Assembly (NCBI GenBank): GCA_964498965.1
Contig: CAZCJU010000001.1
Coordinates: forward strand, 38,008-102,007
DNA from: an uncultured Lachnospiraceae bacterium
Lineage (GTDB): Bacteria; Bacillota; Clostridia; Oscillospirales; CAG-272
Direction of reading: 5' to 3'
Length of the DNA: 64,000 nucleotides
Each line of letters opens with the position of its first letter. The stretch's first letter is position 1. The notes below the pieces were generated by a model. The model made no database searches, was not told where the DNA came from, and was given only the letters and a program-made list of their open reading frames with translations. Position numbers and translations under genes: made by a program. Shown piece after piece: positions 1 through 58,358 of the stretch.

Positions 1-74
1 TAGTTTATCATTCGTCTGTTCGCACCGGATACCTCGTACAACGGTTCATTTACCTTTTTTTTGTTTTCAGCCAT
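1..74 (-). CDS. 5' end of an unidentified gene, partial (runs off window start)
   Basis: ATG at 74..72 with a purine-rich GAGGGAAAGGG upstream, 20 nt after the stop of the TadZ-like gene. The frame stays open to base 1 (MAENKKKVNEPLYEVSGANRRMIN...). Too short to identify. Confidence 0.3.
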   Translation of the reverse strand, partial: MAENKKKVNEPLYEVSGANRRMIN

Positions 75-94
75 GTTTTTTCACCCTTTCCCTC

Positions 95-1150
95 TTACAT
101 GAGCTGTCCGAACACATCGGACGTGGCAAGCTGTCTTGCCAACTGTGCCGAACCGACAGCCTGATACATCGGGAACGAGCCGAGCAAGCGTATGTCGTGT
201 TGACCTATGCCGCCGGCGGGTGACTTATTACAAAGCAGCCAAGCCTTCGGCAGTATTGCGAGTTCGGCTTTTTCGTCGATTATCTTAATACACGACAAAG
301 CTCTGTCCGTCTTGTCGCATGCCGCATCGGTGCCGTCCGTCACCAACACTATCGAGCTGCAATATCCGAAAAACTCGAATTCCGCCTGCGTTCTCGGAAA
401 TTCCGCGTCTATCACTACGTAATCGTAACAACCGAGCAATTTCAACTCGTTTTGAAGCGTTATGTAGTCCTTTGATCCCATTTCCATCATGTCAAGCGGC
501 ACTCTGACCGAAGAATAATAGTTTACTCCGCACGTATCGTGCTTGACCGTGCTTTGCAACTTCATCGTCCGGTTCGTCTTGTTACTCTTTACGGCATATA
601 TCACGTCGCTGAAATCGAATTGACCGTCACAGGAAAAATACATATCGGCATTTCCGTATATCTGTGCATTGAGGTACAGCACTCTCTGTCCGGCATTCGC
701 AAGAGCGATCGCCGATGCCGCCGCAACCGTCGATGTGCCGACGCCGCCGCACGGTGAGGTAAAAACGATCGTTTTCATCGCACCGTTCTCGATTGCCGCC
801 GCACCCGAAATATTCGGAATATGCTCGGAATATATGCTCAGTATCTGCTTGTATATAAGCTCGCCCTTTTGAAATTTACATATTGCCTTATGCTTGTCGA
901 CAAAGCTTATATCAAGGCTTTCCACCAAATACGCAAAACCGCACCTTTTGGGCAACATATTGGATTCTATTTTGAAATTGTCGCTTGCCAAGAACACGTC
1001 TATCTTTTTCTCTTCAAGGCAGGCACTCGCCGCATCGAGATCGGTAAACGAGTATATTTCCAGCTCGTCGGCGTATTTGTTATTAAACATCGGAACGACA
1101 CGGCGAAGATACGTAGTATCGCTTTCAAGTATCGCAAGCTTGATCTTCAT
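95..1150 (-). CDS. TadZ/CpaE-like protein: receiver-like N-domain fused to a MinD/ParA-type ATPase
   Basis: 351 aa. The N-terminus resembles a response-regulator receiver (KIKLAILESD...IDVFLASD). The central region carries a deviant Walker A (FTSPCGGVGTSTVAAASAIALA) typical of the MinD/ParA/CpaE family. AAGGAGGA RBS upstream. Lies next to a CpaF-type ATPase gene. Confidence 0.7.
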   Translation of the reverse strand: MKIKLAILESDTTYLRRVVPMFNNKYADELEIYSFTDLDAASACLEEKKIDVFLASDNFKIESNMLPKRCGFAYLVESLDISFVDKHKAICKFQKGELIYKQILSIYSEHIPNISGAAAIENGAMKTIVFTSPCGGVGTSTVAAASAIALANAGQRVLYLNAQIYGNADMYFSCDGQFDFSDVIYAVKSNKTNRTMKLQSTVKHDTCGVNYYSSVRVPLDMMEMGSKDYITLQNELKLLGCYDYVVIDAEFPRTQAEFEFFGYCSSIVLVTDGTDAACDKTDRALSCIKIIDEKAELAILPKAWLLCNKSPAGGIGQHDIRLLGSFPMYQAVGSAQLARQLATSDVFGQLM

Positions 1151-1344
1151 ATTTTATTCTGTCCTCCTTTTCACTGCGAAAGCATATGCTTTGCAACCGT
1201 ATTTTTGTAATTATATAATTAACGGCGGTTTAAATGCGGTATTTCGTCAAAATTCGCCCCTCCGATGTAAAAAACAGCTTAACGCACATTAGATACGCTT
1301 TGCCTCGCCCGCCGTACTTTATATGTTAGCCTGTGCGAATTCCT

Positions 1345-1460
1345 TCGTCTTATCCGCCATGCTACCGCATGTCCCCTCTGCCCCTAAAGGGAAAGGCTGT
1401 TTTGATTTTGCCTTTCCATTTTCGGGGAAGGTGTCGGCGAAGCCGACGGATAAGGGCATC
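1345..1460. repeat. REP-like GC-rich hairpin element (inverted pair)
   Basis: Contains cctttccattttcggggaagg followed by gtcggcgaagccgacggataagggc, with an inverted partial copy (cgtcttatccgcc...cccctaaagggaaaggc) just upstream. The same word family occurs at 8 or more other intergenic sites in the window. Confidence 0.7.
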
Positions 1461-1469
1461 GCTCCGTTA

Positions 1470-2702
1470 TCATATTACGGTTTGTATTCCCGACAATTTC
1501 AGTTTAAAATCGTTTTTAAGCTCGTTTTGGGTCCGAACAAGGCTCCCCGAAACCCTTTCGAGTGTGCTGTTTTTATCTTCTTTGAAAACGTACAGCGGAT
1601 TAAGTAAGATTTTTCCGTCCCGACATCCGACCACTTCCGTTATTTCAACGGTTCTTCTCGATTTATCACGCATTCTCGACAAATGGATTATCACATCTAT
1701 CGCCGAGCCTATCTGCTGGCGTATCGCTTCGAGCGGAAGTCCCGAAGCGCCCTGCAACACCATGGTTTCGAGTCGGCTCAACATATCTTCCGTCGAGTTT
1801 GCATGACCGGTCGAAAGAGAACCGTCGTGACCGGTATTCATCGCCTGAAGCATATCGAGTGCTTCCTCGCCTCTTACCTCTCCGACAACGATACGCTCGG
1901 GACGCATACGCAATGACGCTTTTATGAGTTCTCTTATCGTGACCCGCCCCGCACCCGATGCGTTCGCATTACGCGTTTCGAGGCTTACGAGATTATCTAT
2001 GCCCGTTATCTGAAGTTCCGCCGAGTCCTCTATCGTAATGACACGCTCGTCTTTCGGGATAAAATTGGACAATGCGTTGAGGAACGTCGTTTTACCGGAG
2101 CCTGTTCCGCCGCTGATGAATATATTGTATTTCGCTTTGACAAGCAATTCCAGCTTTTCGGCGATCTCCTCGGTTATCGATCCGTATTCGATAAGCTTTT
2201 CTATCGTCATGGGATTTTTGGAAAACTTTCTTATTGTAAGTATCGGGCCGCAAAGGGATATGGGAGGAAGCACGACATTCACACGGGAGCCGTCGGGCAG
2301 ACGTGTATCACATATCGGATTCGCACGATTGACCTCACGTCCCGCCATTCCGACTATACGTTGTATTATGTCTTCCAATTTTCTTTGGCTTTCGAACGCC
2401 GCATCCAGCTTTATAAGTCTTCCGTTTCTTTCTATAAACACGTTTTCCGGGCCGTTTATCATTATTTCCGTGACCGTTTCATCGCCGATTATCGTATCGA
2501 GCAAGCCGAAGCCCCTTATCGAGCTGTACACCTGCTGAACGAGATCCACTCTTGCCTGTACCGAATAATACTGTCCTCTTATATTCTCCTCTACGATGTC
2601 CTCGATCCCCGCCGTCAGCTCTTCGTCGCTAAGCTTACTCAGCTGCAGCTCCTCGGTGACTATTTTCTTTAATTTCGAAACTAAGTCCTTATCGAATTCC
2701 AC
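1470..2702 (-). CDS. cpaF: Tad/Flp-type secretion ATPase (CpaF/TadA family)
   Basis: Walker A GGTGSGKTTFLNAL. Also carries the type II/IV secretion NTPase signature VGEVRGEEALDMLQAMNTGHDGSLSTGHANS. The likely start is GTG at 2702, 8 nt after a GGAGGTG RBS; the maximal ORF starts at TTG 2726. Confidence 0.9.
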   Translation of the reverse strand: MEFDKDLVSKLKKIVTEELQLSKLSDEELTAGIEDIVEENIRGQYYSVQARVDLVQQVYSSIRGFGLLDTIIGDETVTEIMINGPENVFIERNGRLIKLDAAFESQRKLEDIIQRIVGMAGREVNRANPICDTRLPDGSRVNVVLPPISLCGPILTIRKFSKNPMTIEKLIEYGSITEEIAEKLELLVKAKYNIFISGGTGSGKTTFLNALSNFIPKDERVITIEDSAELQITGIDNLVSLETRNANASGAGRVTIRELIKASLRMRPERIVVGEVRGEEALDMLQAMNTGHDGSLSTGHANSTEDMLSRLETMVLQGASGLPLEAIRQQIGSAIDVIIHLSRMRDKSRRTVEITEVVGCRDGKILLNPLYVFKEDKNSTLERVSGSLVRTQNELKNDFKLKLSGIQTVI

Positions 2703-2718
2703 AGACGCTTCACCTCCG

Positions 2719-3486
2719 TTATTCAACCTGTATAACTATAAGCGTGGCATTATCTCCGCCGTTTTTCTTATCGACCTCGGCGAGTATTCGCTTAACAGCC
2801 TCGAAAGCGGTATTTTCCCTGAGTATCCCGTACATTTCTCCGATATTCAGTACGTCGGTAACTCCGTCCGAGCAAAGGACATACATATCTCCCGCACGGA
2901 TATCGCCCTTTGAGATATACGGCAATATGCTCATCTCGGTTTCGTCTATTCCGATATATTGAAGCAGAACGGGCTTTTTTCTTATTCCCATTGCCGTCAA
3001 TATCCGCTCGTCCGTATGATCCTCGGAAATACAGATCATTTTTTTGTCCCTTATTCTGAATATCCTGCTGTCACCGACATTGCAGGCGACCACTTCGTCC
3101 TGTAAAAACCAGACGGCGGCAACCGTCGTACCGACGGCGGACAATTGCTTGCTCTCACGCAGCAGATTCACCTCGTTATTTGCTCTTTCACAGGCGGAAA
3201 ACATAAATTCTCTGCCGGACATCGCCCACTCTTCGAGCTTTTTGTATTCCTCGCCGAACACCTTACTCGAAAGGCAGGATGCCTCCGCACCGCAGCATTC
3301 TCCTCCCATTCCGTCGAACACGGAAAACAGCACCGGCTCGTCCGTCGTACTGCTGCATTTAAGCGGATTTTTCAAACCCGTATTCGGGATCGGAAGTCGC
3401 TTTTTGTTAAAATAGAAATTGTCTTCGTTATTTCCCCGTCCGCAGCCGACAAACGAGCCGCAGGAGGCATTTAAGGTTAAGACCAT
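2719..3486 (-). CDS. PP2C-family Ser/Thr protein phosphatase
   Basis: 255 aa with PPM motifs: GRGNNEDNF, FSVFDGMGGECCGAEAS, NVGDSRIF, LCSDGVTDVL, GGDNATLIVI. Confidence 0.85.
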   Translation of the reverse strand: MVLTLNASCGSFVGCGRGNNEDNFYFNKKRLPIPNTGLKNPLKCSSTTDEPVLFSVFDGMGGECCGAEASCLSSKVFGEEYKKLEEWAMSGREFMFSACERANNEVNLLRESKQLSAVGTTVAAVWFLQDEVVACNVGDSRIFRIRDKKMICISEDHTDERILTAMGIRKKPVLLQYIGIDETEMSILPYISKGDIRAGDMYVLCSDGVTDVLNIGEMYGILRENTAFEAVKRILAEVDKKNGGDNATLIVIQVE

Positions 3487-3502
3487 AGCTTCAACACCGT
3501 TT

Positions 3503-3673
3503 TTAAATCTTCAATAAGGAATTTTCCCCGTCATTAAGCTCGGCAAGCAAATCCGGTATGGGATCGTATCCTCTGCCGAATGACGAACAAAACGCATCGT
3601 CCGAGAGGCGAGGCTTCTTGCCTAAGCTGCGGGTTTCATATATTTCGAGAATAAAATTTTTTAAAGATCGCAT
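3503..3673 (-). CDS. Possible 56-aa small protein between the kinase and the phosphatase
   Basis: Not in the ORF track (below 60 aa). ATG at 3673 lies 8 nt after the kinase stop, and TAA at 3505..3503 lies 16 nt before the PP2C ATG. Translation: MRSLKNFILEIYETRSLGKKPRLSDDAFCSSFGRGYDPIPDLLAELNDGENSLLKI. There is no clear SD, but it fills an otherwise empty 195-bp gap inside an operon. Confidence 0.25.
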   Translation of the reverse strand: MRSLKNFILEIYETRSLGKKPRLSDDAFCSSFGRGYDPIPDLLAELNDGENSLLKI

Positions 3674-3681
3674 TTTTCAAG

Positions 3682-5541
3682 TCAAAATCGTGCGAATATA
3701 TCGGAAGCGACAAGTATTATCGACGCTACCGCACCCGCTCCCGCCGTCACGCACGTTATTACGTACATTATCAGCTTTACGCCGTGCGGCTTCTCGCCGC
3801 TTCTGTAGCCGTATGCCCACACAAATGCGGTAAGAGCGGCTATATCGTAAAATACTTGCCACAATCCCGTTTCAAACGCTCCGTTTGCAAGGCAGTACAC
3901 GTTAAAAAGCCACTGCAGTGCGATCGCATAAACACACAGCACACCGCCGAGCCGCACTTCTCTTTGCGAGATTATGACTATGCCGCCGAAAAGCGTAAGC
4001 GCACCAGCCGCAAGCACGACTATGGCATCGAACGGTATTTCCGTTCTCACGCCGCCGTCAAGCATTGCCGTCGCACCCGTGACCAGCTTACCGAGCGAGA
4101 GAGCCGAAAGAGCCGTGCCGACCGCAAATTTGTTTCGGTCCGATGCCGCTATTGCGAATCCGACGGACAAAAGCGACACACAAACGGATATTTCCGTCGA
4201 GGTCATATCTCCGGTCACCGCAAGCACGACTCCGAGAACGCAAAGCACCGCCGCCATAAATACCGCCGCTATTCTGCATGCCTTGCTCGATTTCGAGGTA
4301 AGGTATGTATCGCTCTGTTTCGAATCGCTTATCGGCAATATCGTCCGCCGTCCGCCCGACGAGCGAACCTCGCCGACTTGATCCCCTTGTCCGTTCGGAT
4401 AAGTCGCACGGCTTCGAGCGTTCTGCGGCACATTCGCATAAGAAACCCGTCCCGCATTCGGGTACGGCGGGGAAGTCATACCGTCCTGTCCGAGGACCGT
4501 TGTGCCGCTGTCAAGCTCATCCACCACAAGACGTCCGTTTGCCGTCATATCGTTCGTCGTGCTTTGGAATATACTGACCGTATCGTTATAACACATTGCT
4601 TCCGATCCGATCTTTCCGTTATCGCCTGTTTGAACGAGTGTATTCCATTCCTCTATCAGTGCGTTCTTAAATTCCGAAGCCGAACGGTATCGCTGTGACG
4701 GTTCGAACGAGCAAGCTTTGACGATGACCTGCCCCAGAGAAGCATTTGCGTTGCACGGCAATTCGAGCGGCTTTCCCGAAAGCCTTTGTGTCAGTGCCTC
4801 CTCGTTGTCCTTATACGAGATCGGTTGCGGATATTTCGGTAAAAACGCCGTTCTGTTATTGTTCAAAAGGGTGTAAAGGACAAGACCGAGGGAATAAATA
4901 TCGACACTTGAGCCGTATTCCTCGCCCTTGTACACTTCCGGAGCCATATAATTCAGCGTACCCTTTCTCGAAAGGTTTGCGTGCGTCGCCTCAAGCTTTC
5001 GCGCTATGCCGAAATCGCCCAGCTTGTATTCTCCGAAGCGTGATATAAATATATTGTCCGGCTTGATATCTCTGTGAACGATATAATTCCGTTCGCATAT
5101 TTCAAGGGCGGAACATATGTCCAAGCCGAGCTTGATCACGTCTTTTTGGGAAAAGCTCGGATTCGATATAAAGCTGTCAAAAGGTGTCAAAAGCTCCATT
5201 CGGATAAATATATCCCACCCGAGTTCTCCCTCATGCTCGACTATCTTGTAATCTTCTATGCCGACTATGTTTTTCGCGCCCTTAAGATTATCCATAAGGG
5301 TTATTTCGTTAAGCAGATTGTCCACGATCCCTCTGAAATAATCGTACACTTCGCTGTCGCTCATGCCCTGCGTTTTGGCGTATTTGATCTCCTGTTGGCT
5401 TTTCGGAATCGTAATGACCTTGACGGCAGACCAAAACGTTCTGCCGTACTCAACTCTTTTAGCACGGTATACCTTGCCGAACGAGCCTTCGCCGAGGACG
5501 CATTCCTCGTTCCACTCCGGCCACACCTGATTTATATTCAT
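3682..5541 (-). CDS. Hanks-type Ser/Thr protein kinase with a polytopic C-terminal membrane domain
   Basis: Kinase motifs GEGSFGKVY, VAVK-like AVKVI, HRDIKPDNIF, DFG and GTLNYMAPE. The C-terminal ~200 aa contains about 6 hydrophobic segments. The preferred start is ATG 5541 (GAGGAAA RBS); the maximal ORF starts at 5574. Confidence 0.9.
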   Translation of the reverse strand: MNINQVWPEWNEECVLGEGSFGKVYRAKRVEYGRTFWSAVKVITIPKSQQEIKYAKTQGMSDSEVYDYFRGIVDNLLNEITLMDNLKGAKNIVGIEDYKIVEHEGELGWDIFIRMELLTPFDSFISNPSFSQKDVIKLGLDICSALEICERNYIVHRDIKPDNIFISRFGEYKLGDFGIARKLEATHANLSRKGTLNYMAPEVYKGEEYGSSVDIYSLGLVLYTLLNNNRTAFLPKYPQPISYKDNEEALTQRLSGKPLELPCNANASLGQVIVKACSFEPSQRYRSASEFKNALIEEWNTLVQTGDNGKIGSEAMCYNDTVSIFQSTTNDMTANGRLVVDELDSGTTVLGQDGMTSPPYPNAGRVSYANVPQNARSRATYPNGQGDQVGEVRSSGGRRTILPISDSKQSDTYLTSKSSKACRIAAVFMAAVLCVLGVVLAVTGDMTSTEISVCVSLLSVGFAIAASDRNKFAVGTALSALSLGKLVTGATAMLDGGVRTEIPFDAIVVLAAGALTLFGGIVIISQREVRLGGVLCVYAIALQWLFNVYCLANGAFETGLWQVFYDIAALTAFVWAYGYRSGEKPHGVKLIMYVITCVTAGAGAVASIILVASDIFARF

Positions 5542-5572
5542 AAATTTCCTCGTTTCTTTTGCCTGCATAGAC

Positions 5573-5630
5573 ATTTTAACCTAAAAAACGCCTGTTTTCA
5601 CGCAAATGTAATTTTCCGACCCGTAAATGT
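5573..5630 (-). promoter_or_regulatory. Candidate LytTR-regulator box plus promoter upstream of the kinase/PP2C/cpaF genes
   Basis: Minus strand reads ACATTTACG-GGTCGGAAAATT-ACATTTGCG: two 9-bp direct repeats (5630..5622 and 5609..5601) with a 12-bp spacer and 21-bp period. These are followed by a weak -35 (GTGAAA) and a -10 TAAAAT (5578..5573). The layout matches the known ComE/AgrA-type binding-site architecture, and a LytTR regulator gene lies immediately upstream. Confidence 0.45.
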
Positions 5631-5648
5631 AATTTTTCATCGATTTTT

Positions 5649-6953
5649 TTACTGTTCCTTCATTGACAGTACCGCCGTTGCCGTAAAAATTCCGTTTTGA
5701 GCGGAAACTATGAAGTCGCCTCTGTATTTTTTCGCTATTCCCGCAATGATGGGCATTCCGAGTCCGTGAGTTTGGCTTTTCGATTTCGTCGTTTCTATTC
5801 TGTCCGTGCTTTCTACGACCATGCCTATCTTGCACGAATTAAGGACACGCACCACCAAATACCCGTTTTTTTCGAATATTTCTATTATCATCTTCGGGTG
5901 CGACTGCTCACTGCAAACGCAGCCGCGTATGGCATTGTCGAGCAGATTGCCTATTACCGTGGACAGGTCGAAGTCCGATATCGGTATGTTATCCAGCCGC
6001 TCCTTTACTTTTATACGGGTTTCTATGTTCTTTGCCTCGGCTTCGCTCTTTTTGTTGGACAGCATAATATTAACGACCGGGTTATCGCAGTACATCATCT
6101 GATCCACCAAAGCATATCTTGCTTTCAGCTCGTTTATCAGCTCCAATCCCTTTTGATCCTGACCGTTGCCGAACAGCGAATACACCGTCTGAATGTGATT
6201 TGAAATATCGTGCTTGATCTCACGCAGTTTTTTTTCGTTCTCCACGCTCATTTCATAGTATTTGTATTCCATACTGCTTATTTCACGCCCGTAGTCCATG
6301 CCCGTGGACATGGTGACACGCCGCACAAGGTACGGTGCGACAGTACCCACGGAAAGGTTCGCTCCGATCATGCATACCGTTGCCGCAAGGGAAAGAGGAG
6401 AAAAATCGATTTCCTCCGCACCGCCCGCCGCCCTTCTCATCGCAAGCACCGCAGTTATCTCGGCGACACCCGTAACGGCAAGAGTTCCCAGCACCCACGG
6501 CTGTTCCACGCTTCTTCTCGGTCTTGTGAACTGAAAAATAACGGAGGTCGTGACCGAAAGCAGTATTAGGTATAATATATTACAATATATCGGATCGGTC
6601 GGTGTTTCCGCCGCCGAAAAAGTCACTTTACCGCTCAATGCCGCCGAATACAGGACGAATGCAAGTGCCGCCGAACCGAATGATGCGGCAAGCCTTATCA
6701 AAAGTACCCGTATTTTCTTTTTCGGCTTATCTTCGTACATTAAGAAAATAAATACGAACTCCGCTACGGTCGTTACGACGCAACGTATCAAAAACAGATC
6801 GCTTAAGGCGAGTATTATCGCCGCACATATCTCCCCCCAAAGCGTCAGCAGTAAAGGTCTGCCGTATTTCGCCTGCAGCATATTCGCCGTAAACGCACCC
6901 GATATCACCGCTTCAAGCACGAAAACAACGATCGAGTAAATATATTCGCTCAT
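5649..6953 (-). CDS. AgrC/ComD-like (HPK10-type) membrane sensor histidine kinase
   Basis: 434 aa. The N-terminal half has about 6 TM segments. H-box KHDISNHIQTVYSL and a GHKL ATPase C-terminus (GNLLDNAIR, THGLGMPII). Its start overlaps the stop of the LytTR regulator gene by 4 nt. Confidence 0.85.
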   Translation of the reverse strand: MSEYIYSIVVFVLEAVISGAFTANMLQAKYGRPLLLTLWGEICAAIILALSDLFLIRCVVTTVAEFVFIFLMYEDKPKKKIRVLLIRLAASFGSAALAFVLYSAALSGKVTFSAAETPTDPIYCNILYLILLSVTTSVIFQFTRPRRSVEQPWVLGTLAVTGVAEITAVLAMRRAAGGAEEIDFSPLSLAATVCMIGANLSVGTVAPYLVRRVTMSTGMDYGREISSMEYKYYEMSVENEKKLREIKHDISNHIQTVYSLFGNGQDQKGLELINELKARYALVDQMMYCDNPVVNIMLSNKKSEAEAKNIETRIKVKERLDNIPISDFDLSTVIGNLLDNAIRGCVCSEQSHPKMIIEIFEKNGYLVVRVLNSCKIGMVVESTDRIETTKSKSQTHGLGMPIIAGIAKKYRGDFIVSAQNGIFTATAVLSMKEQ

Positions 6954-7660
6954 TGTTCTTCACCGAGATATGATATAAATTTGATCTTCGCATCCTTTAA
7001 ATTCGGCTTACTTATCGGAAGAACGCTTCCGTCCGACAGATAAAACTCCTTGTTCGTCCTCTCGGTGATGTATTTCATGTTTATCAAAAAGCTCTTATGA
7101 CTTCGTATAAAAGTGCCTCCCAGCTGCTGCTGAATAACGTCCATTTTTTCGTAGATCTCGTTCTTTTTACCGTCTGCCATGTACAGTATGAGTTTTCGTC
7201 CTCGGCTTTCCAGATACATTATCTCCTTGCGGTACAATATCAGCTCCGAACCGTTCGTTTTTATGACTATAGCGTCGGCTCTGTCCGCCTCGATCTCGCA
7301 GCTTACCTTGGTTATTGCCGCACTCAAGCTGTTTTCGTTTATCGGTTTGAGAAGAAAATATGCCGGATTCGTTTCGAAAATAGTTGTCGCATAGCTGATA
7401 ACACCCGTCAGATAAATGACCTTGAGCTTCGGATAGTATTTCTGCAGACGCTTGACGGTTTCTATGCCGTTTCCGTCCTTCAGATTTATATCCATAATAA
7501 GAAGATCGGGAACATGTTCGTTAATCTCGATCATACCGATAAGCTCACCGCAACGGTTCATCGTGATGACCTTGTACTTGTCCCCGAAGTGCTTCATTAT
7601 GAAAAATTTCAGAAATTCCGTTATATTGATGTCATCGTCACATACAAAAATTTCGAGCAT
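6950..7660 (-). CDS. LytTR-family response regulator (AgrA/ComE-like)
   Basis: 236 aa. Receiver domain (MLEIFVCDDD...DLLIMDINLKDGNGIE) plus a C-terminal LytTR-type DNA-binding domain (FIRSHKSFLINMKYI). Confidence 0.9.
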   Translation of the reverse strand: MLEIFVCDDDINITEFLKFFIMKHFGDKYKVITMNRCGELIGMIEINEHVPDLLIMDINLKDGNGIETVKRLQKYYPKLKVIYLTGVISYATTIFETNPAYFLLKPINENSLSAAITKVSCEIEADRADAIVIKTNGSELILYRKEIMYLESRGRKLILYMADGKKNEIYEKMDVIQQQLGGTFIRSHKSFLINMKYITERTNKEFYLSDGSVLPISKPNLKDAKIKFISYLGEEQ

Positions 7661-7714
7661 GATCTTTTACTTCTTTCATTAATGCTGTGTCTGTGTGGTT
7701 TTTTTCGCATCGCC

Positions 7715-7800
7715 GACCTCCGCACTTCCCTCTTCGGGGTGAAGCATCGGCTGCAGCCCTTCCCGCAAAGCCTTCCCTTTTTGAGGGAAGGCTTTGGCTC
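7715..7800. repeat. REP-like GC-rich hairpin element
   Basis: Perfect hairpin aaagccttccc-tttttga-gggaaggcttt at 7767..7795, preceded by cttccctcttcggggtgaag. Lies between the giant surface-protein gene and the LytTR regulator gene. Confidence 0.7.
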
Positions 7801-7842
7801 AGAAGCGACGGGTGTAAAACACCCGAGAAGAGAATTTGTTGT

Positions 7843-10800
7843 TTATGCGTTCTTCTTTTTCTTCTTTTTTCTCGAAACGATAAGCAATACGAGTGCTGTC
7901 AATGCGAGTACCGCACCGCCTATCGAGCCGTAAAGTAAGGGCTTATTCGCGTAATAGATTACCCAACGGCTTTGCGATACCGTTACCTTTGTGTATTCCG
8001 CATTATACTCGTTTGCGTGTCCGTTTCCGTCATCGGACGAGTCACAGCATATTATTCGCACTCGGTTTTCAAGCCCTTCGGGAACGGTAAACGTGACTTT
8101 TCCTCCGTTTTCGGACAAGTATGTCAAAAATTCATCGCCCGATTTTTCGAATCTTACGCTGATATCGTTTCCGTTTTCATCGCACAACGGCTCCCCGTCC
8201 GAGGTAAGCACTACGGCTTTAAAGCTGTACAATCTGCCTCCGTCGTCATTGGGTATTGCCGTTACCGTTTGTTCGCCTACACGATAGCGACCGCCGTTTT
8301 CGATTCCGCTCACGGTAACGGTCGGAGCTGTTTTATCGACGGTAAACGCCGCATTCAGTCCTTTAACGTCACTGTAAGCCGCCGCACCTGCCTTATCGGT
8401 GCTTTCCACCGTAATGCGGTATTCGCCCTCTTCGGCGAACAGATCCTTTGAGATCACATATATACGTTTGCTCCACTCGTTTTCGCTTTGCGTCAAGCTC
8501 GATATATAGTCGCTGCCCTCCGCAAGCTCTTTTCCGTTGAGCTTAACAACGTATGTGTCAACGGGGTCCGTATTGACTTCTTCTATCACCATATCCTCGT
8601 TGACGCCGTACACATAGTATTGCTCAAGCAGCTTATCCGTGCTTTTATCCGCGGTAAATGCCGATCCGTTTCTGTTTACGGAGAAATCAACTTCCTCATA
8701 TGCTATTCCGTCATCGAGGGTAAGTGTCGAGCAGGTGTTTCCCGCAAGATCCTTTACCGTGCAGACAAGGGCGTATACACCGTCGTCCGCAAGGTTTTCG
8801 AGCTTAAGCTCGTATGTATTTCCCTCCCTGACGCACTTCATATCGGCGAACGGCACGTTTTTCTTTTCATATGTTCCGTCCTTGCCGGCGACAAGTACCG
8901 TAAGGCTCGGCAAAAACGTATCACCGTTTATATTCGCATCGTCTGCCGTGATCGTAATACCGAGCTTTTCTCCTTTGTTTGCCGAATTTTGCTTCGGTCC
9001 GCTCATTTTTACGGTCGGTGCGACCGTATCCAGCGTCAGCCGCTCGGAAGTATACGATTCCATTTTGTTATCGGATCTGTCGGTATACTCGACCGTCACC
9101 GTATAATTTCCGTCATCGGTGAGTTTGAATGTGCCGTTATGTACATCGGCACTTTCGTTTTCCCACTTGACCCCGACATTTTCGCCGTTCACCTTAACGT
9201 CCACGTCTTCCGAATAGAAGTTAGCTTCGTTTATGACGAGCTTTACCTCGATATCCGACGAATAATATTTCACTCCGTCCGAAGCATACACCGGTTCGTT
9301 ATACACGACGTTCATCGTCGGTGCTATATTATCCACTATGACGCGGTGCTTGTCCGCTTTTTCCGCACTGTTTTCGGCTCGGTCATACGCCGTAAATCTT
9401 ACCGTGCCGTTGAATTGGCTTTCCGTTTTCATCGCATCCTTCGGTACGACGAAGGTTGACGAATATTTTTTACCGTCCGTTATGATATCCGCTTCCTTTA
9501 CGACGGCGTTTATCATTTCCTCGTTTACGTCGCTTACACCGGCACTCTTAACATACGAATATGCAAAGCCGTACACTCCCGAGGTTTCGTCCTCCGCACT
9601 CACCGTAACGGTCACCTCGGCGTTATAATAGCCGAATGTTATCGCTTCAAGCACTCTGTCGGTAACGCTTCTGCTGTATGTAACGGTGAGCTTTTCGGGC
9701 GGAGTCGTATCGACCGTGAATTTATCCTCGCCGTATTTCGCCGCCGCATTGCGTGCCGTATCCGAGTACGAATATCCGAATGTATAATTCGCATCGGCGG
9801 AGAAGCGTACGGTTACGGTGTGCGTATCTCCGTTTTTATTCCAGTTGGCTTCGTTCGACATATACGCCGCAAAATCCGATATTTTAACGTCGTTGCCGAG
9901 AACGTTTTTCGCCGTGACGGTCGCCGCAAAATCCGACGCACGGAAATTATGTTCCGTCACCGTCACGGTAACACTCTGTTCCTTATCGAAATATTTTCTT
10001 CCGTCGATCTCGTTCACCGCATTCGTATTGCCGTAGCGAACGCTTACGATCGGTGCGGTTTTATCGACGGTGAAAATGTCGGACTTATAATATTTCCTTG
10101 CCGTGCCGTTATCGTAAGACGATATATCGGCTTCGTTGCCGGACATATCCGTGTATTCCAGCTCCAAAACGTAATCGCCGTCTTTATCGAAGCTTATTAC
10201 GAGGCTGTGCCGATCACCGTCGCCGGACCAGTTAAAATATTTTTTCACGGCGTTTTCGTATTTGCCCAAGCTGCCCTCGGGCAGATACTCATAAACGGTT
10301 TTTCCGCCGTCGTTATTTGTTTTTGTGAGTTTTATTCCGATATTGTGTATCACGCCGTCCGACGCACGCATTCCCTCGAAGAAGCTCGCCTCGTTCACCG
10401 TGATCGTCGCTTTAATATTGCCGTTATAGTATGCATGTGTCGCTTTATCGAGCGTACTTACATCTTTTCCGCTTCCGTCCGTAAAGCGAGCTTTTGTATT
10501 TACGCTTTCCGTTTCGTATTTAATACCCACAACGGGCGAGATGCTGTCAACTACGATGATCTTCCTGTTCTTCTCGTTTTGCTCCGTGTCGTTTCCGGCT
10601 TTATCCGTCGCTTTTACGGTTATATAGCCTCTTGCCTGCGCGTCGACGGTAAACGTCGCACTCGCAACGGTTCCGTTTTCGTCGTATGTAATATCGTCCG
10701 CACCTATTCTTCCGCTTTTGCCCGAGGAATAAGTACCGCTTACGCCGTCCTGCCTTACATAGCTCCATTCGAACGAGTCAACACCCGAAATACCGTCGTT

Positions 10801-13800
10801 TGCCGTTACGGTCACGGTCACCTTATGCTTATAGAAGCCGAAGCTTACCGCTTCTGTTAATTTATCCGACAAAGAACTGCCGTATTCTATTTTAAGTCCC
10901 TCGGGTGCCGTTTTATCGACAATGACCTTTTTCCCGTAAGCCGTTCTCGTACCGTTCACCGTCAATCCGTTTCCGCTCTCGTCGGTAAAGTCAAGCAGCA
11001 GCTCGTACTCGCCCTCGTTCGACAGTGTATATTCGGCGATCCAAACTCCGTTTTCCCCGTCGTATTCCCATGTAAGAGCCGTAAATGCGTCGTTCACCTT
11101 AAAGCTCGGCTCGCTTTGACGCAGGTCGAAGTTGTCCTCTTTGATTTTGAATACGACCAGCACGTCATCCGAACCGTAGATCACGTCGCCGAGTAGCTCT
11201 TTGCCGTTTACGCTGTACTCCGTTTCGAGTATCGGCGACAGTGTATCGACGACGAGGATGCGATCCGTTTGCACGCAGTCCGAGCTTGATCCCGCCTTGT
11301 CCGTTGCGGTCATTTTCACTCTGTTTCTGAATTGTGCCGGAATATCGAAGCTGTATTCGACGCTTCCGTCCGCATTTACCGTGCAAGCATCCGCATTCAC
11401 CGTTACCTCGCCGTTGCCGATATCGTACGTCAGGTGATCTATACCCGAGGTCGCATCAAATGCTTTGAGCGTTACGGTAACGGTATCCGAACTGTATATA
11501 CCGAATGTGAGCGATTCGAGTATTCTTTCGACAAAGCCCTCCGAATACGTTATTTCGAGATTTTCGGGTGCTTTTCGGTCTATTTTTATGTTTTCGATCT
11601 CTATCGCCTGCGAGATGTTGCCGTCCTTTTTCAAATATACCGTGATATTGTTTATTCCGTCGTCACCGAGTACAAGCGACTCGGACCACTCGTTTCCGTT
11701 CAGCTTGTCCGACGTGCTTATTTCCCAGCCTTCGGGAGGGATAACGATCGCTTCTCCGACATACCATTCCGATCCGTCGTTTCTTTCGCCCGAAACGGTC
11801 GGGGTCGGTACTTCCTCCTCATTTATGTAAGAAACCGTCAGCATAAAGCTTTTTTCCAGCTCCGAATACCGTTCGTCGGCTGTTCTTTTGACCGTAACGA
11901 TAACCGAACCGACCTTGCCCTCCGAATCGACGAGCGTAATTTTTCCGTTTTCGTCGACACTTGCTCCGATATCGTTTTCTCCGACGAGATATGTATACTT
12001 TCCGTCGTTGTCCGATCTATCGTCCGTCTTGATCTCGTACTCTGTCATGCCGTATTTCAATTCCGCGTCGGACACGTAAAATTCGGGAACGGCACGCAAA
12101 ACGGTAAGCGTATATTCGACCGTGATCGCTTTATACCTATCGTCCTCCGCTTTTGTCACTCCGATCGTTATTTCGCCCGCTTTTTTCGTTAAGATTTCGC
12201 CCGTTTCGCTGTCTATTTCGGCAACATCGTCGCCCGAAACTATTTCATACGACAATTCACCGTCGCCGCTTCCGCCGCTGACGGTAAGCACGCTTTGTTT
12301 TTCATTATTGTATACGACATCTCCGGCGACGGATACGTCCGGCTTCTCCTGCTCCGCCTTTGTTACCTCAAGCGTATACTCCGCACTGCCCGCCTCATAT
12401 GTGTCGTCCGCCTCTTTTGTCACCTCTACGGTAACAAAACCGGCTTTTTTGATCGTAAGCTCACCCGTTTCGGGGTCTATATCGGCAACATCATCACCCG
12501 AGGTTATTTTGTACGTCAGCTTTCCGCTGCCGCCCGCATTCACGGGCGTGTACGTATATGTCAAGCCGTCTTTGTAAGTGACCGTCGGGTCGGGACGTTC
12601 GAATTTGAAATCGGGACTTTGATCTTTTCTTACCGCACTGACCGTATATCGTGCCGTTGCCGACTTATATTTGTCGGTTTTGGCTATCGTCGCTTCCACC
12701 GTCGCCTTGCCGGACTTTTTGAAAACAAGCGAACCCGTTTCTTCGTTTATCTCCGCAATTTCTTCGCCCGAGATCAGCTTATACGTCACCTTGCCGTCGG
12801 AGCTTTCCGAAGTTGCCTTGTTCGTGTACTCGTCACCGACAAACACGTCGTCCGGGTCCTCGTCCCCGAATTTCAGATCCGTCAATTCCTTCAGCGGTTC
12901 AACCGAATACAGCTGTGTTGCCTCGTCGTATACGGCACCGTAAATTTCGTTATCGATATACCCGCCTACGTCCGATGCGAATTTTCCGCCGATTATGCCC
13001 GTAACATTATCGACATCATCGGTCTGCGTAAGCTTACCGAACGTACCGTTTGATATATCAAGGAATATTTTGCCTTTTACCTCGTCTGTGTTTTCGAGAT
13101 GTACGTTTCCGATCTTGACGTTTTCCCCTCCGCAGATTATATATGCGTCGTTTCCGTTAAGCGGATCGACCGAGATCGCAAACGACGTTCCGGATCTGTC
13201 GGAATAGCCGTTATAAACCTCCGTGCTTCCGGAAAGTGCGAGCTTGCACCTGTTATTTACGGTGAAACGTGTTTTATCTCCCGTTTTCAGCTCCGCACCG
13301 TCAAGCGTCAGCTCACCGTCGTTTTCGATACCGTATTTAGTGCCGCAAAGCACCGTGCCGTTTTTAATGCAAAGCTTGCTGTTTTTCCTAACGCACGCAC
13401 CTGTATTTCCCGCCGTGCAAAGAGTGAGTTGTTTGCCGTTCAGCTCGAAAACCATATTTTTCGGCTCTTTTCCGTAGTAATCGCCGATATCAAGCTCCTT
13501 TTCAAGTGCGATATTATCCGCAAGACGTATCGTGACGGGCTTTTCGGGACGTTCGCCGTCACTTCCGGCGTTTGCCGCAGCTATGAGGCTTTCGAATTCG
13601 CCTGCGTCGTAAGCTCCGAAAGTACCTCCGTCTATCTCAAACTCCGTATCGACCGAGCTGTTTCCGTCCTCTATGATCCTGTCGAAGCTGCCTGCGGAAA
13701 TGTCTAACTTTACCTTGCCTTTATTGTCGCTCGTTCTCGCATATCTTTCTATCTGAACCGTGCCGACGCTTACTTCTTCGCTGTCGCAGATCAGCGACGC

Positions 13801-14457
13801 ATCGACATCGTATGTATAATACAAATTGTACGGGTCAAGCGTAACGGCGATAAAATCGTTCTTGCCTACACTCTGCTCCGTCTTGCCGTTTTCGATACTC
13901 GTTTTTCCCGAAAGCGTGAGTTTACCTCGATTGTTTACGGTGTATATCGTCATCGCACCCGACTTTAATGTAACGTTCTCAAGCGACAGCTCTCCGTAGT
14001 TTGCGATTCCGACCTTTATATGCGACGCTTCATCGTCGGGACATACCAGCGTACCGTTTTCGATATGCAGCTTGCTGTACGCCAAGACACGTATACCGTT
14101 TGTTTCCGTTCCCTTGGAACCGACGGCGGGACGAAGCGTAAGCGTATTTCCGCCGAGGTCAAGCTCTATGTTTTTTGTCACCGAGCCGTTCGCCAGTCCG
14201 ACATCGAACCCGCATTCCGTATTTGCCGTAAGTTCGATCCTCGTCGGACTGTCCGGAAGGACACGGTTCTCGCCCGACTGTGCCGCATTTATCGCTTCGG
14301 ACAGTGTTTCGTAGCTGTTATCGCCTATTTTCGCAACGCCCGTTTCCGCTTTTACGTTGACGAAAAGCACTGCCGCAGGCACCGAGCCGACGGCGATCGC
14401 CGCCGCCAGCAGTATTGCCGACAGTTTTATCGGCAGACTGTTTTTAAATTTTATCAT
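7843..14457 (-). CDS. Giant (2204 aa) secreted, C-terminally membrane-anchored, repeat-rich surface protein (putative adhesin)
   Basis: N-terminal signal peptide (KLSAILLAAAIAVGSVPAAV). Two beta-helix-like modules (GGNTLTL...NG.RV...KL.I.NGT). Four Big_2-like Ig repeats (e.g. KVTYKLISGEEIAEINEETGSLVFKKSGKATVEATI). Three ~280-aa super-repeats (LEITYSEGFVERILESLTFGIY / LKIEYGSSLSDKLTEAVSFGFY / LTVTYSRSVTDRVLEAITFGYY). C-terminal TM segment plus SRKKKKKKNA tail. ATGA overlap with the upstream gene. Confidence 0.85.
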   Translation of the reverse strand: MIKFKNSLPIKLSAILLAAAIAVGSVPAAVLFVNVKAETGVAKIGDNSYETLSEAINAAQSGENRVLPDSPTRIELTANTECGFDVGLANGSVTKNIELDLGGNTLTLRPAVGSKGTETNGIRVLAYSKLHIENGTLVCPDDEASHIKVGIANYGELSLENVTLKSGAMTIYTVNNRGKLTLSGKTSIENGKTEQSVGKNDFIAVTLDPYNLYYTYDVDASLICDSEEVSVGTVQIERYARTSDNKGKVKLDISAGSFDRIIEDGNSSVDTEFEIDGGTFGAYDAGEFESLIAAANAGSDGERPEKPVTIRLADNIALEKELDIGDYYGKEPKNMVFELNGKQLTLCTAGNTGACVRKNSKLCIKNGTVLCGTKYGIENDGELTLDGAELKTGDKTRFTVNNRCKLALSGSTEVYNGYSDRSGTSFAISVDPLNGNDAYIICGGENVKIGNVHLENTDEVKGKIFLDISNGTFGKLTQTDDVDNVTGIIGGKFASDVGGYIDNEIYGAVYDEATQLYSVEPLKELTDLKFGDEDPDDVFVGDEYTNKATSESSDGKVTYKLISGEEIAEINEETGSLVFKKSGKATVEATIAKTDKYKSATARYTVSAVRKDQSPDFKFERPDPTVTYKDGLTYTYTPVNAGGSGKLTYKITSGDDVADIDPETGELTIKKAGFVTVEVTKEADDTYEAGSAEYTLEVTKAEQEKPDVSVAGDVVYNNEKQSVLTVSGGSGDGELSYEIVSGDDVAEIDSETGEILTKKAGEITIGVTKAEDDRYKAITVEYTLTVLRAVPEFYVSDAELKYGMTEYEIKTDDRSDNDGKYTYLVGENDIGASVDENGKITLVDSEGKVGSVIVTVKRTADERYSELEKSFMLTVSYINEEEVPTPTVSGERNDGSEWYVGEAIVIPPEGWEISTSDKLNGNEWSESLVLGDDGINNITVYLKKDGNISQAIEIENIKIDRKAPENLEITYSEGFVERILESLTFGIYSSDTVTVTLKAFDATSGIDHLTYDIGNGEVTVNADACTVNADGSVEYSFDIPAQFRNRVKMTATDKAGSSSDCVQTDRILVVDTLSPILETEYSVNGKELLGDVIYGSDDVLVVFKIKEDNFDLRQSEPSFKVNDAFTALTWEYDGENGVWIAEYTLSNEGEYELLLDFTDESGNGLTVNGTRTAYGKKVIVDKTAPEGLKIEYGSSLSDKLTEAVSFGFYKHKVTVTVTANDGISGVDSFEWSYVRQDGVSGTYSSGKSGRIGADDITYDENGTVASATFTVDAQARGYITVKATDKAGNDTEQNEKNRKIIVVDSISPVVGIKYETESVNTKARFTDGSGKDVSTLDKATHAYYNGNIKATITVNEASFFEGMRASDGVIHNIGIKLTKTNNDGGKTVYEYLPEGSLGKYENAVKKYFNWSGDGDRHSLVISFDKDGDYVLELEYTDMSGNEADISSYDNGTARKYYKSDIFTVDKTAPIVSVRYGNTNAVNEIDGRKYFDKEQSVTVTVTEHNFRASDFAATVTAKNVLGNDVKISDFAAYMSNEANWNKNGDTHTVTVRFSADANYTFGYSYSDTARNAAAKYGEDKFTVDTTPPEKLTVTYSRSVTDRVLEAITFGYYNAEVTVTVSAEDETSGVYGFAYSYVKSAGVSDVNEEMINAVVKEADIITDGKKYSSTFVVPKDAMKTESQFNGTVRFTAYDRAENSAEKADKHRVIVDNIAPTMNVVYNEPVYASDGVKYYSSDIEVKLVINEANFYSEDVDVKVNGENVGVKWENESADVHNGTFKLTDDGNYTVTVEYTDRSDNKMESYTSERLTLDTVAPTVKMSGPKQNSANKGEKLGITITADDANINGDTFLPSLTVLVAGKDGTYEKKNVPFADMKCVREGNTYELKLENLADDGVYALVCTVKDLAGNTCSTLTLDDGIAYEEVDFSVNRNGSAFTADKSTDKLLEQYYVYGVNEDMVIEEVNTDPVDTYVVKLNGKELAEGSDYISSLTQSENEWSKRIYVISKDLFAEEGEYRITVESTDKAGAAAYSDVKGLNAAFTVDKTAPTVTVSGIENGGRYRVGEQTVTAIPNDDGGRLYSFKAVVLTSDGEPLCDENGNDISVRFEKSGDEFLTYLSENGGKVTFTVPEGLENRVRIICCDSSDDGNGHANEYNAEYTKVTVSQSRWVIYYANKPLLYGSIGGAVLALTALVLLIVSRKKKKKKNA

Positions 14458-15008
14458 TTTCGATCTTCCCCCTTCGTTTCGGAGCTTTTCGCACGTTCTT
14501 TTTTCATTTCGCCGAATATTTTTTCTTTATTCGTAATATAATAAAATATTTTTCCGTTCAATGTGCAGTGCATACAAAACGACAGCACGAACAACGACAG
14601 CAGAATGTAGCAGATATAGCCGGTGCCTTTCGTCAATATCAAAGCCGCAACGAAGCCCGCCAAGTTCAGTACCGCGGCGATATCGGCACACACCGCACCC
14701 GGGTTTTCGAAAAACGATATGATCCCCGGTCTTCTTTTCACTCTTGACCGCCGTATACGGTTTTCGGCGTACCACGCCTTTCTTTTATGCGACAAAACGC
14801 ATTGAACGATCGCCGTCCCGACAAGGCATGACCAAAACATGATCCCCGCCGCAAACGTGTAGACCGAAATGCCGTTCACCGCTTCCTTGCCGTCGATGGG
14901 CATGAGCGAAAAGCTTGCCGACAGTCCCGTGAAAAGCAATATCGATATTGCGAACAATATGTACTCGCTTCGCTTTCCCTTGGCTTTGTTTTTCGCTGTT
15001 CGGCTCAT
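14454..15008 (-). CDS. Small polytopic membrane protein (about 4 TM), function unknown
   Basis: 184 aa with four hydrophobic segments. ATGA start/stop overlaps with both neighbours indicate translational coupling. Confidence 0.6.
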   Translation of the reverse strand: MSRTAKNKAKGKRSEYILFAISILLFTGLSASFSLMPIDGKEAVNGISVYTFAAGIMFWSCLVGTAIVQCVLSHKRKAWYAENRIRRSRVKRRPGIISFFENPGAVCADIAAVLNLAGFVAALILTKGTGYICYILLSLFVLSFCMHCTLNGKIFYYITNKEKIFGEMKKERAKSSETKGEDRK

Positions 15009-15589
15009 TGTACCGCCTCCGCGTAGATTATCTCGTCGGTATGTATGTACGTTATCTCGTATTCTATCTCAAACACCTCCGCACACGGAGTGCCGAGTAT
15101 TGTCGTTTCGGAGGTCGGGTGAGCGTCGAGATCGAGCGTACCGACGGCAAACGAGTCAAGCAAAGTTGTTTCCGAAGCGGGGCTTTCGTCGAGATCTACG
15201 GTCGTTTTTCCGTATGCGTCGAGCAAGGTCGTTTCGTCGCTCTCGCCGTTCGGCATCGTATATGCTCCCAAGCTCTGCGTGCCTATTTTCGATGTACCTG
15301 CGGCGTGAGTCTGCGTTCCGTGCCTTTGCACGACCTCGCCCGAGGACGAGATCTTATCGGTAAGCTTACCTCTCGCCTCATTAAACGCACTGCCCTTGTA
15401 ATTTTTTTCGCCCGTTTCCTCGTTTCGGCGGCGAATGTCCTTTATCGCCTTTTTCGCCGTTGCTCCCGAAAGATCGCCCATCACCTTAGGTATTTTAAGT
15501 GCGATGAAGATTATCAGCGTTGCGGCGAGCGATATTCCGCACAGAACGGCGGAGCCGATAAATATGTATCTGTAAATTTCGTATGTCAT
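15005..15589 (-). CDS. N-terminally anchored membrane protein with a triple ETT(L/I)L repeat
   Basis: 194 aa. Single N-terminal TM (IFIGSAVLCGISLAATLIIFIAL). The C-terminus carries repeats of about 21 aa: DETTLLDAYGKTTVDLD / SETTLLDSFAVGTLDLD / SETTILGTP. GGAGGA RBS 6 nt upstream. Confidence 0.6.
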   Translation of the reverse strand: MTYEIYRYIFIGSAVLCGISLAATLIIFIALKIPKVMGDLSGATAKKAIKDIRRRNEETGEKNYKGSAFNEARGKLTDKISSSGEVVQRHGTQTHAAGTSKIGTQSLGAYTMPNGESDETTLLDAYGKTTVDLDESPASETTLLDSFAVGTLDLDAHPTSETTILGTPCAEVFEIEYEITYIHTDEIIYAEAVQ

Positions 15590-15601
15590 TTCCGTCCTCC
15601 G

Positions 15602-17269: not shown

Positions 17270-17281
17270 TACCCATCCCCC

Positions 17282-18049: not shown

Positions 18050-18140
18050 CGTTTGTGCCTTTCTTCGCATGATATTATACGGTCGGCAATTCTCGATATT
18101 CGTTGTACGCATCGTGAGCGTCAATATGTTTATACGTCCG

Positions 18141-18230
18141 TACGCCATCATACGCCATCATACGCCATCATACGCCATCATACGCCATCGTACGTCATCA
18201 TACGTCATCATACGACATCGTACGACATCG
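18141..18230. repeat. Tandem array of nine 10-bp units (TACGNCATCR)
   Basis: tacgccatca x4, tacgccatcg, tacgtcatca x2, tacgacatcg x2. Exact 10-bp phase. Lies about 90-180 bp upstream of the PP2C start codon. Confidence 0.95.
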
Positions 18231-18361
18231 ATCGACAATCGCCGATAACATTATACATTTTATGAATTTAAAAAAATATATATGTTAAAAAAGGACCTTA
18301 TTTTGTAAAAAACGGATCATATCGACAACGTATTCGGCACGCATTCGAATGTAAACGCAAC

Positions 18362-18384
18362 AAAAAAAGGCAACATTGCCTTTT
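18362..18384 (-). terminator. Rho-independent terminator (minus strand) inside repeat copy A
   Basis: Minus strand reads AAAGGCAA-TG-TTGCCTTTTTTTG: a 7-bp stem followed by a T7 run. Lies downstream of the acyl-CoA synthetase gene. Confidence 0.7.
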
Positions 18385-18469
18385 CGTAAATATGTATTTC
18401 ACCTTTAGCTTTTCCGTTCCGTACGCCTTTCCTTCATAAAGCTTTTCCGCTCTCCGTCCGTAAAGCTTT

Positions 18470-18540
18470 CTCCTTCGGGTACGGCGGCGATCGCCGCTCC
18501 TCCCTCGCAAGCCTTCCCCTGCCGGAGAAGGCTTGCGGAG
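18470..18540. repeat. REP-like GC-rich hairpin element
   Basis: ggcggcgatcgccgc palindrome followed by the hairpin gcaagccttc-ccctgccgga-gaaggcttgc (18507..18536). Confidence 0.7.
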
Positions 18541-58167: not shown

Positions 58168-58227
58168 TACTACATCGTACTACATCATACGACATCGTAC
58201 GACATCGTACACCATCGTACGACATCG
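58168..58227. repeat. Tandem array of six 10-bp units (TACNNCATCR)
   Basis: tactacatcg tactacatca tacgacatcg tacgacatcg tacaccatcg tacgacatcg. Confidence 0.95.
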
Positions 58228-58358
58228 ATCGATAATCGCCGATAACATTATACATTTTATGAATTTAAAAAAATATATATGTTAAAAAAGGACCTTATTT
58301 TGTAAAAAACGGATCATATCGACAACGTATTCGGCACGCATTCGAATGTAAACGCAAC

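Follow-up and report, generated by a model that had tools for sequence, protein, structure and literature searches.

A conserved LytTR-type direct-repeat box with a predicted promoter between two kinase genes, and its counterparts before Tad, type VII secretion and adhesin operons, in an uncultured gut Clostridia genome

The DNA analysed here, referred to as the window, is a 64,000-nucleotide stretch of contig C1 in the 1.81-Mb, 122-contig assembly of an uncultured Lachnospiraceae bacterium. All genomes compared below are metagenome-assembled, and some of their taxon labels (e.g. 'Bacteroidaceae' for locus L034) probably reflect mis-binning. The left part of the window carries genes for a two-component system (TCS), a Ser/Thr kinase and phosphatase, and Tad proteins, at the following window coordinates:

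7766..7796, minus strand: hairpin with a 13-bp stem and no U tract, between the adhesin and regulator genes (fold z-score -4.2)
6950..7660, minus strand: response regulator of 236 aa, REC plus LytTR (Pfam Response_reg 56.8 bits, LytTR 50.8 bits)
5649..6953, minus strand: histidine kinase (HK) with HATPase_c_5 (Pfam) and 6-7 transmembrane segments in residues 1-205, an AgrC/ComD-like architecture
3682..5541, minus strand: polytopic Hanks-type Ser/Thr kinase (STK; Pfam Pkinase)
2719..3486, minus strand: PP2C phosphatase (Pfam)
1470..2726, minus strand: CpaF/TadA ATPase (Pfam T2SSE)
95..1150, minus strand: TadZ-like protein (Pfam)

The response regulator matches the ComE structure 4cbv and is 63-90% identical to its orthologues, in which the LytTR segments are near-invariant. 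The histidine kinase is less conserved than its paired regulator (orthologues 50-80% identical), with His248 invariant in 30 orthologues. A sequence-only reading of this DNA had placed a cognate-looking LytTR regulator and a kinase immediately upstream of a direct-repeat box, here named P1, and kinase-PP2C-TadA genes downstream of it; Pfam assignments bear out both sides (Pkinase, PP2C and T2SSE/CpaF downstream), and the order Hanks kinase, PP2C, CpaF/TadA is the same in orthologous loci. That reading had also seen no agrB. Consistent with this, neither AgrB (PF04647) nor a Peptidase_C39 exporter (PF03412) gave a match in the 84%-complete genome, and the TCS is flanked instead by adhesin and Hanks kinase genes. 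By membership the TCS is neither agr nor com; it resembles their output stage. The surrounding island extends over C1:~20000-56400, which corresponds to window positions 1-18400 plus 18 kb to the left, and Pfam detected no DNA-binding domain in it other than that of the regulator.

On the minus strand, the 108-nt gap from the HK stop (5649) to the Hanks kinase start (5541) reads GAAAAATTACATTTACGGGTCGGAAAATTACATTTGCG-tgaaaacaggcgttttttaggt-TAAAAT, and the sequence across the repeats is ...GAAAAATTACATTTACGGGTCGGAAAATTACATTTGCGTGAAAACAGGCGTTTTTTAGGTTAAAATG... The elements of this gap are:

5601..5638, minus strand: full 38-nt P1 box, made up of flank, DR1, GGGTCGG spacer and DR2
5622..5630, minus strand: DR1, ACATTTACG, aligning with the DR1 of 16 homologous boxes
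5601..5609, minus strand: DR2, ACATTTGCG, 21 bp downstream of DR1
5596..5601, minus strand: weak -35-like hexamer GTGAAA (promoter scan), abutting DR2 with a one-base overlap
5573..5578, minus strand: -10 hexamer TAAAAT, beginning 22 nt past DR2 and ending 31 nt before ATG 5541
5551..5546 and 5541..5539, minus strand: ribosome-binding site GAGGAA and Hanks kinase ATG

P1 is thus ACATTTACG-N12-ACATTTGCG (5630..5601) with a period of exactly 21 bp, confirming the 9-bp repeats, 12-bp spacer and 13/14-matching 14-mer described previously. The two 9-mers are identical at 8/9 positions, a repeat search returned a wider pair of 15-mers (5601-5615 and 5622-5636) identical at 14/15, and the complete 21-nt units are identical at 16/21. 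The weak -35 abutting DR2 and the downstream TAAAAT, both noted earlier, were recovered by the promoter scan as GTGAAA-17-TAAAAT (5601..5573), the sole sigma-70-like site on the minus strand in 5300..7900. The start codon preferred for the kinase was likewise correct: because all orthologues begin with M(N/D)INQVWPEW (MNINQVWPEW in the window), ATG 5541 is the true start. The pattern ACATTTRCG-N11-13-ACATTTRCG had one match in the window, none in 100 shuffles and one in the whole 1.81-Mb assembly. Direct repeats of at least 14/15 at a period of 20-22 numbered 20 non-low-complexity cases in 1.81 Mb and 0-1 in mononucleotide shuffles, most of the 20 being short-unit tandem arrays.

Between DR2 and the -10, the gap contains a weak AAAAC-AGGC-GUUUU stem with U residues after it, as might be expected if the P1 region acted through its RNA, by terminating or attenuating transcription between the kinase genes or by providing a processing site there. 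We regard this as very improbable, since the fold of the whole gap is no better than that of shuffled sequence (z -1.2; 21/200 shuffles fold equally well), the terminator scan and the fold of the gap revealed no terminator between the HK gene and P1, and the conserved elements are direct rather than inverted repeats.

To place P1 in a comparative setting, approximately 20 orthologous loci were collected, the kinase having many orthologues in gut metagenomes; a scan of metagenome contigs for further orthologues yielded 2 loci. Within its own family the kinase was found only in the sister species G001 (search of 400 family genomes), so that the distribution of the locus is patchy. Across orthologous loci, the HK-to-STK junction measures between 14 and about 130 nt. 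Two contigs, which break off 31 nt (L044) and 45 nt (L045) past the kinase stop, were uninformative, and the kinase-side contig L087 was used instead. A P1-type box lies at the junction in 9/18 informative loci (the window, L087, L088, L043, L046, L047, L051, L038 and L032/L089) and is absent from G001, L034, L036, L037, L039, L040, L041, L049 and L052. The expectation that the repeat would be conserved before orthologous kinase genes therefore holds for half of the informative loci, the closest relative L087 among them, and fails for the other half, including G001, whose kinase-to-kinase junction is 31 nt long. P1 is accordingly placed as a predicted optional internal promoter.

In L087 (kinase 79% identical), DR1, DR2 and the -10 are all identical to the window, the alignment collapses just upstream of DR1, and four changes cluster in a 7-nt segment of the spacer; because the two loci are ~92% identical over the whole promoter and 5'UTR, this pair alone cannot single out the box. 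A self-repeat scan of orthologous junctions (period 19-23) picked out only the window (12/13) and L038 (10/13). The halves of the box differ too much in the other loci, so that conservation is visible between loci and not within them.

The boxes were therefore compared by alignment. A MAFFT alignment including flanks (A2) was split by gaps and was replaced by the ungapped 40-nt core (A3). Here 16 boxes, drawn from 10 loci, align gaplessly with the consensus GATTTTTACATTnnAAGGTCGnnTTTTTACATA, giving the family form TTTTTACAtt-N4-GGTCG-N2-TTTT(T/G)ACAta. The CA of DR1 and the C of DR2 are invariant among the 16, one spacer G and the DR2 T-tract are at least 90% conserved, and the period is 21 throughout except in L032/L089, where it is 22. 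This alignment overturns the earlier choice of ACATTTRCG as regulon core: what is conserved is the T-tract with ACA (TTTT(T/G)ACA) and the spacer GGTC, which explains why the genome search proposed on that basis (ACATTTRCG-N12-ACATTTRCG) returned a single match, P1 itself, and no regulon. A looser ACATTT-N15-ACATTT pattern gave matches that were intragenic or unconvincing. P1 carries A, not T, in the near-invariant T-tract before DR2 that the other boxes possess; with this tract missing, P1 would probably be weaker and later-firing, needing more phosphorylated regulator. The first box sites were chosen by eye, and only the later untrained matches and negative control are free of that bias.

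A weight matrix built from 10 foreign sites, with no window site among them, was scanned over the whole 1.81-Mb, 122-contig assembly. The boxes recovered, with their rank, were:

58274..58311, minus strand: PA, ranks 1-2 together with PB, 38.2 bits; a copy identical to PB in a duplicated promoter cassette, TATAAT at 58252..58247
18277..18314, minus strand: PB, ranks 1-2 together with PA, 38.2 bits; DR1 18306..18298, DR2 18285..18277, TATAAT at 18255..18250
1239..1276, minus strand: P2, rank 3, 30.3 bits; after the CpaF stop and before the TadZ-like gene, DR1 1268..1260, DR2 1247..1239, TATATA/TATAAT at 1217..1210
C1:24794-24831, minus strand, left of the window: P3, rank 5, 19.3 bits
5601..5638, minus strand: P1, rank 6, 17.8 bits

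Five of the six best sites genome-wide thus lie on the window's own contig, on the same strand as the TCS. The site at rank 4, C7:16426 (18-21 bits; 21.4 in the ranking), was rejected for its wrong geometry, with TATAAT only 5 nt past the box. By matrix score P1 is the weakest family member: maxima on shuffled genomes were 11-17 bits, and the best of them (17.1) falls barely below the 17.8 of P1. The TTGACA of P2 was considered as a plain -35 and rejected, as no consistent -10 lies 17-18 nt downstream while TAnnnT at 21-22 nt is consistent. Elsewhere in the genome, another period-21 direct repeat, CGTATTTTTTCAAA, occurs in two to three intergenic copies at C3:9838-9895; it scores 16-17 bits with the box matrix yet is without the ACA core, and may be the site of another regulator.

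A model based on box sequence alone, R1, gave P1 18.8 bits (E 0.004) and was searched over 11 genomes carrying the TCS. Matches at E<=0.01 were present in 10/11, and the significant ones cluster on the TCS-carrying contig. Sites on which the model had not been trained were found before PP2C genes (G432, G427), before tadZ (G425, G427, G428, L088), before yukD or the FHA end of essC (G001, G425, G429, G430) and at two further places in G001, these contexts being backed by Pfam. The same model produced no match at E<=0.01 in 12 same-family genomes without the TCS. Overall, at least nine other genomes carrying an orthologous TCS have the same boxes at the corresponding gene junctions: the box before tadZ is kept in 11/11 readable loci (window, G001, L037-L041, G425, G427, G428, L088), and orthologous boxes precede PP2C genes in G001, G432 and G427. 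All boxes point toward the downstream gene. Starts of TAnnnT peak sharply at 21-22 nt past DR2 (counts of 9 and 15, or 24 of 32 site counts, with 0-8 at other offsets), and the geometry from box to -10 is therefore fixed.

These comparisons largely refute the reading of P1 as a functionless local duplication of 21 bp that arose by chance or neutrally. The 16/21 identity of its units is what a recent tandem duplication would give, and sister species G001 has no box; against that stand the P1-type boxes at the same junction in the eight other loci named above, in several of which DR1 overlaps the kinase stop codon (GAAAATGACATTAGCGGG), the fit of P1 to a profile built from other genomes, and the conserved spacing to the -10. 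A functionless duplication is accordingly highly unlikely, and P1 is, as judged from its sequence, a real and conserved putative binding site plus promoter of the LytTR type, of the AgrA/ComE kind. As a class, LytTR-type cis-elements are textbook knowledge.

The box family could also be real and bound by a different protein, with the adjacent TCS regulating something else. The genome encodes only two LytTR proteins, and the second, on contig C62 (C62:1209-2136) with an adjacent short kinase, could be the binder, as could an unrecognised factor among the several island ORFs that lack a Pfam match. This alternative is improbable given that the boxes co-occur with TCS orthologues across distantly labelled genomes and are absent from the 12 same-family genomes without the TCS, that they cluster on the contig and strand of the TCS, and that only the LytTR type uses the 21-bp tandem format. 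The tandem-dimer format, the conservation of the regulator and the presence of only one other LytTR protein instead argue that the island regulator probably binds the boxes and would activate promoters with a weak -35.

In sister species G001, two more well-formed boxes were observed outside the island (C1:225200-225231, L086; C21:1743-1778, L085), each with a -10 about 20-21 nt downstream. The former precedes a gene for a zinc-ribbon membrane protein, recalling PA, behind which lie genes for zinc-ribbon membrane proteins; no homology was detectable between the zinc-ribbon proteins at the two sites.

Behind P2 lie genes for the TadZ-like protein, TadB/C, Flp pilin, a prepilin peptidase, repeat proteins, a TadE-like protein and a DUF6382-FHA protein. 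P3 precedes a type VII secretion operon encoding EssC (FHA plus FtsK), YukD and two WXG100 proteins. The genes behind PB encode PP2C, a Hanks kinase, a 194-aa protein, a 184-aa protein and a 2204-aa Ig-like surface protein or adhesin. The regulon anticipated earlier, namely the kinase/phosphatase/Tad genes downstream of P1, is thus included and too small, for boxes also stand before the PP2C-kinase-adhesin, Tad and type VII secretion operons. Together, the boxes, numbering at least five, appear to place Tad, type VII secretion, giant-adhesin and kinase/phosphatase operons under one TCS.

PB is preceded by an intrinsic terminator (~18364..18385) that insulates it from the gene upstream. Downstream of its adhesin gene lies the hairpin lacking a U tract, followed by the RR-HK genes. 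The 183 nt preceding the regulator gene contain neither a box (R1 search) nor a sigma-70-like site (promoter scan); any autoregulation must therefore rest on read-through past the strong hairpin. Such autoregulation from PB is plausible, and since PB probably reads through into the RR-HK genes, positive feedback would follow.

Downstream of the PB and PA -10s, tandem arrays of 10-nt units, (C/T)GATG(G/T/A)CGTA, were observed on the minus strand (18141-18230 and 58168-58227). They sit in the transcribed leader and run into annotated start codons, and their copy number differs between the PB and PA cassettes.

Taken together, we assign a probability of roughly 0.78 to the reading in which the P1 repeats are the operator of an activator-dependent sigma-70 promoter bound by the adjacent LytTR regulator. 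In the proposed mechanism, a dimer of the phosphorylated regulator (6950..7660) would bind DR1 and DR2 in tandem, two helical turns apart, with DR2 at about -43..-35 and DR1 at about -64..-56 relative to the start site. The dimer would recruit RNA polymerase to a promoter whose -10 (TAAAAT) is good and whose -35 is poor. Transcripts beginning near 5566 would extend into the Hanks kinase, PP2C and CpaF/TadA genes, with P1 acting as an optional internal booster promoter. Boxes of the same geometry would govern the PB (PP2C-kinase-giant adhesin), P2 (tadZ-tadBC-flp) and P3 (essC-yukD-WXG100) operons.

Binding by this regulator might alternatively repress or modulate, with the TAAAAT promoter constitutive or with P1 acting as a roadblock to read-through from the kinase gene. 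LytTR regulators can repress, as does AgrA bound downstream of the bsaA promoter (PMC4227749), and no terminator separates the HK gene from P1. However, the P1 repeats lie upstream of the -10 and start site and not over them, the -35 is poor (4/6), as is typical of activated promoters, and the constant 22-nt interval between box and -10 across 32 boxes points to polymerase-contact geometry. These features make repression an unlikely mode of action and favour activation.

The activation model agrees with what is known of LytTR regulators, whose tandem dimers occupy a pair of 9-10-bp direct repeats spaced 11-12 bp apart, the exact repeat spacing being important (PMC4005675; PMC2766830; PMC4227749). 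By sequence, P1 shows the features of such a site: repeats, spacer, abutment on a weak -35, fixed orientation and a nearby LytTR regulator. In ComE boxes of Streptococcus pneumoniae, a tandem LytTR dimer occupies a pair of imperfect 9-bp direct repeats separated by a 12-bp linker (PMC4005675). The present boxes resemble those of the comCDE, comAB and comX promoters in repeat and linker length and in being shared by several operons, and here too the TCS operon itself is probably under box control. They differ from ComE boxes in the half-site (T-tract plus ACA), in the conserved GGTC of the spacer and in standing before pilus, secretion, adhesin and kinase genes, not competence genes. In contrast to the ComE system, the 84%-complete assembly yielded no C39 exporter and, short of a systematic survey of small peptide genes, no ComC-like gene.

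AgrA binds as a LytTR dimer to a direct-repeat pair located upstream of promoters whose core elements are suboptimal (PMC4227749). The agr P2/P3 sites of Staphylococcus aureus share with P1 the direct-repeat pair upstream of a suboptimal promoter, and the agr system shares the polytopic AgrC-like HPK10-type kinase paired with a LytTR regulator; this genome differs from agr in having no AgrB match, and the promoter-proximal repeat is predicted at about -40 here, as opposed to about -60 at agr (PMC4227749). Streptococcal regulons of the SilA/BlpR type use a direct repeat with a 21-bp period and essential exact spacing, and were found by weighted-matrix genome scans (PMC2766830). The period is the same here, and a matrix scan also worked; unlike in those regulons, which comprise peptide-induced bacteriocin genes, no bacteriocin or peptide genes were detected here.

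For the secretion genes, the relevant account is that of Garrett et al. 2024 (PMC11217815). The sections drawn on here describe type VII secretion system (T7SS) variants with kinases, PP2C phosphatases and DUF6382-FHA proteins, report that Tad genes adjoin some variants, and leave shared regulation open. Like T7SSe/f/j and the Tad-adjacent T7SSg/h of those sections, the island has EssC with FHA, YukD, two WXG100 proteins and DUF6382-FHA, together with PP2C and Hanks kinases, a TadZ-like ATPase and a full Tad set. It differs from these descriptions in having a shared cis-element before both clusters and a LytTR TCS inside the island. The common predicted operator constitutes in-silico evidence that the Tad and T7SS clusters share regulation in this lineage.

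TCS orthologues were present in 1/97 genera sampled from the family. They were also present in assemblies from goat, rabbit and other guts that carry the labels Ruminococcus, Lachnospiraceae, Acutalibacteraceae and Eubacteriales. Such a distribution suggests that the whole Tad/T7SS/adhesin island has spread horizontally. We lean, by a narrow balance, toward the broader proposal that a single LytTR TCS lacking any recognisable peptide-pheromone module acts as master switch for a 'contact island' that has spread horizontally in herbivore-gut Clostridia, and that the same 36-bp operator in this island would co-activate the Tad pilus, the kinase/phosphatase/FHA-linked T7SS, the 2204-aa adhesin and two Hanks-kinase/PP2C pairs. 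If true, Tad and T7SS clusters would for the first time be concretely linked through shared regulation, the point left open by Garrett et al. 2024 (PMC11217815). An isolated repeat has in this way become a conserved predicted operator with a position-specific model and a regulon prediction in uncultured gut Clostridia. The question of shared Tad-T7SS regulation becomes testable, as the same box stands before both clusters, the adhesin operon and two Ser/Thr kinase/phosphatase pairs. The arrangement also points to a layered circuit: Ser/Thr modules, which probably control secretion by way of FHA domains, appear to be turned on by His-Asp signalling.

Two minor features of this genome and its relatives were also observed. 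GC-rich hairpins built on AAGCCTTCCC...GGGAAGGCTT recur at operon borders in this genome and close relatives (window 7766-7796, ~18500-18535 and ~1400-1440; L045 2120-2158; L087 1-27); they look like a family of REP-like elements and may explain why Logan contigs break after the kinase gene. In several relatives, a small membrane-protein gene (66-152 aa), absent from the window, lies between the HK and Hanks kinase genes (L046 3669-4127, L047 3804-4004, L089 2025-2477, L042 1548-1617) and stands behind or in front of the P1 box; its product may be an accessory sensor or signal component.
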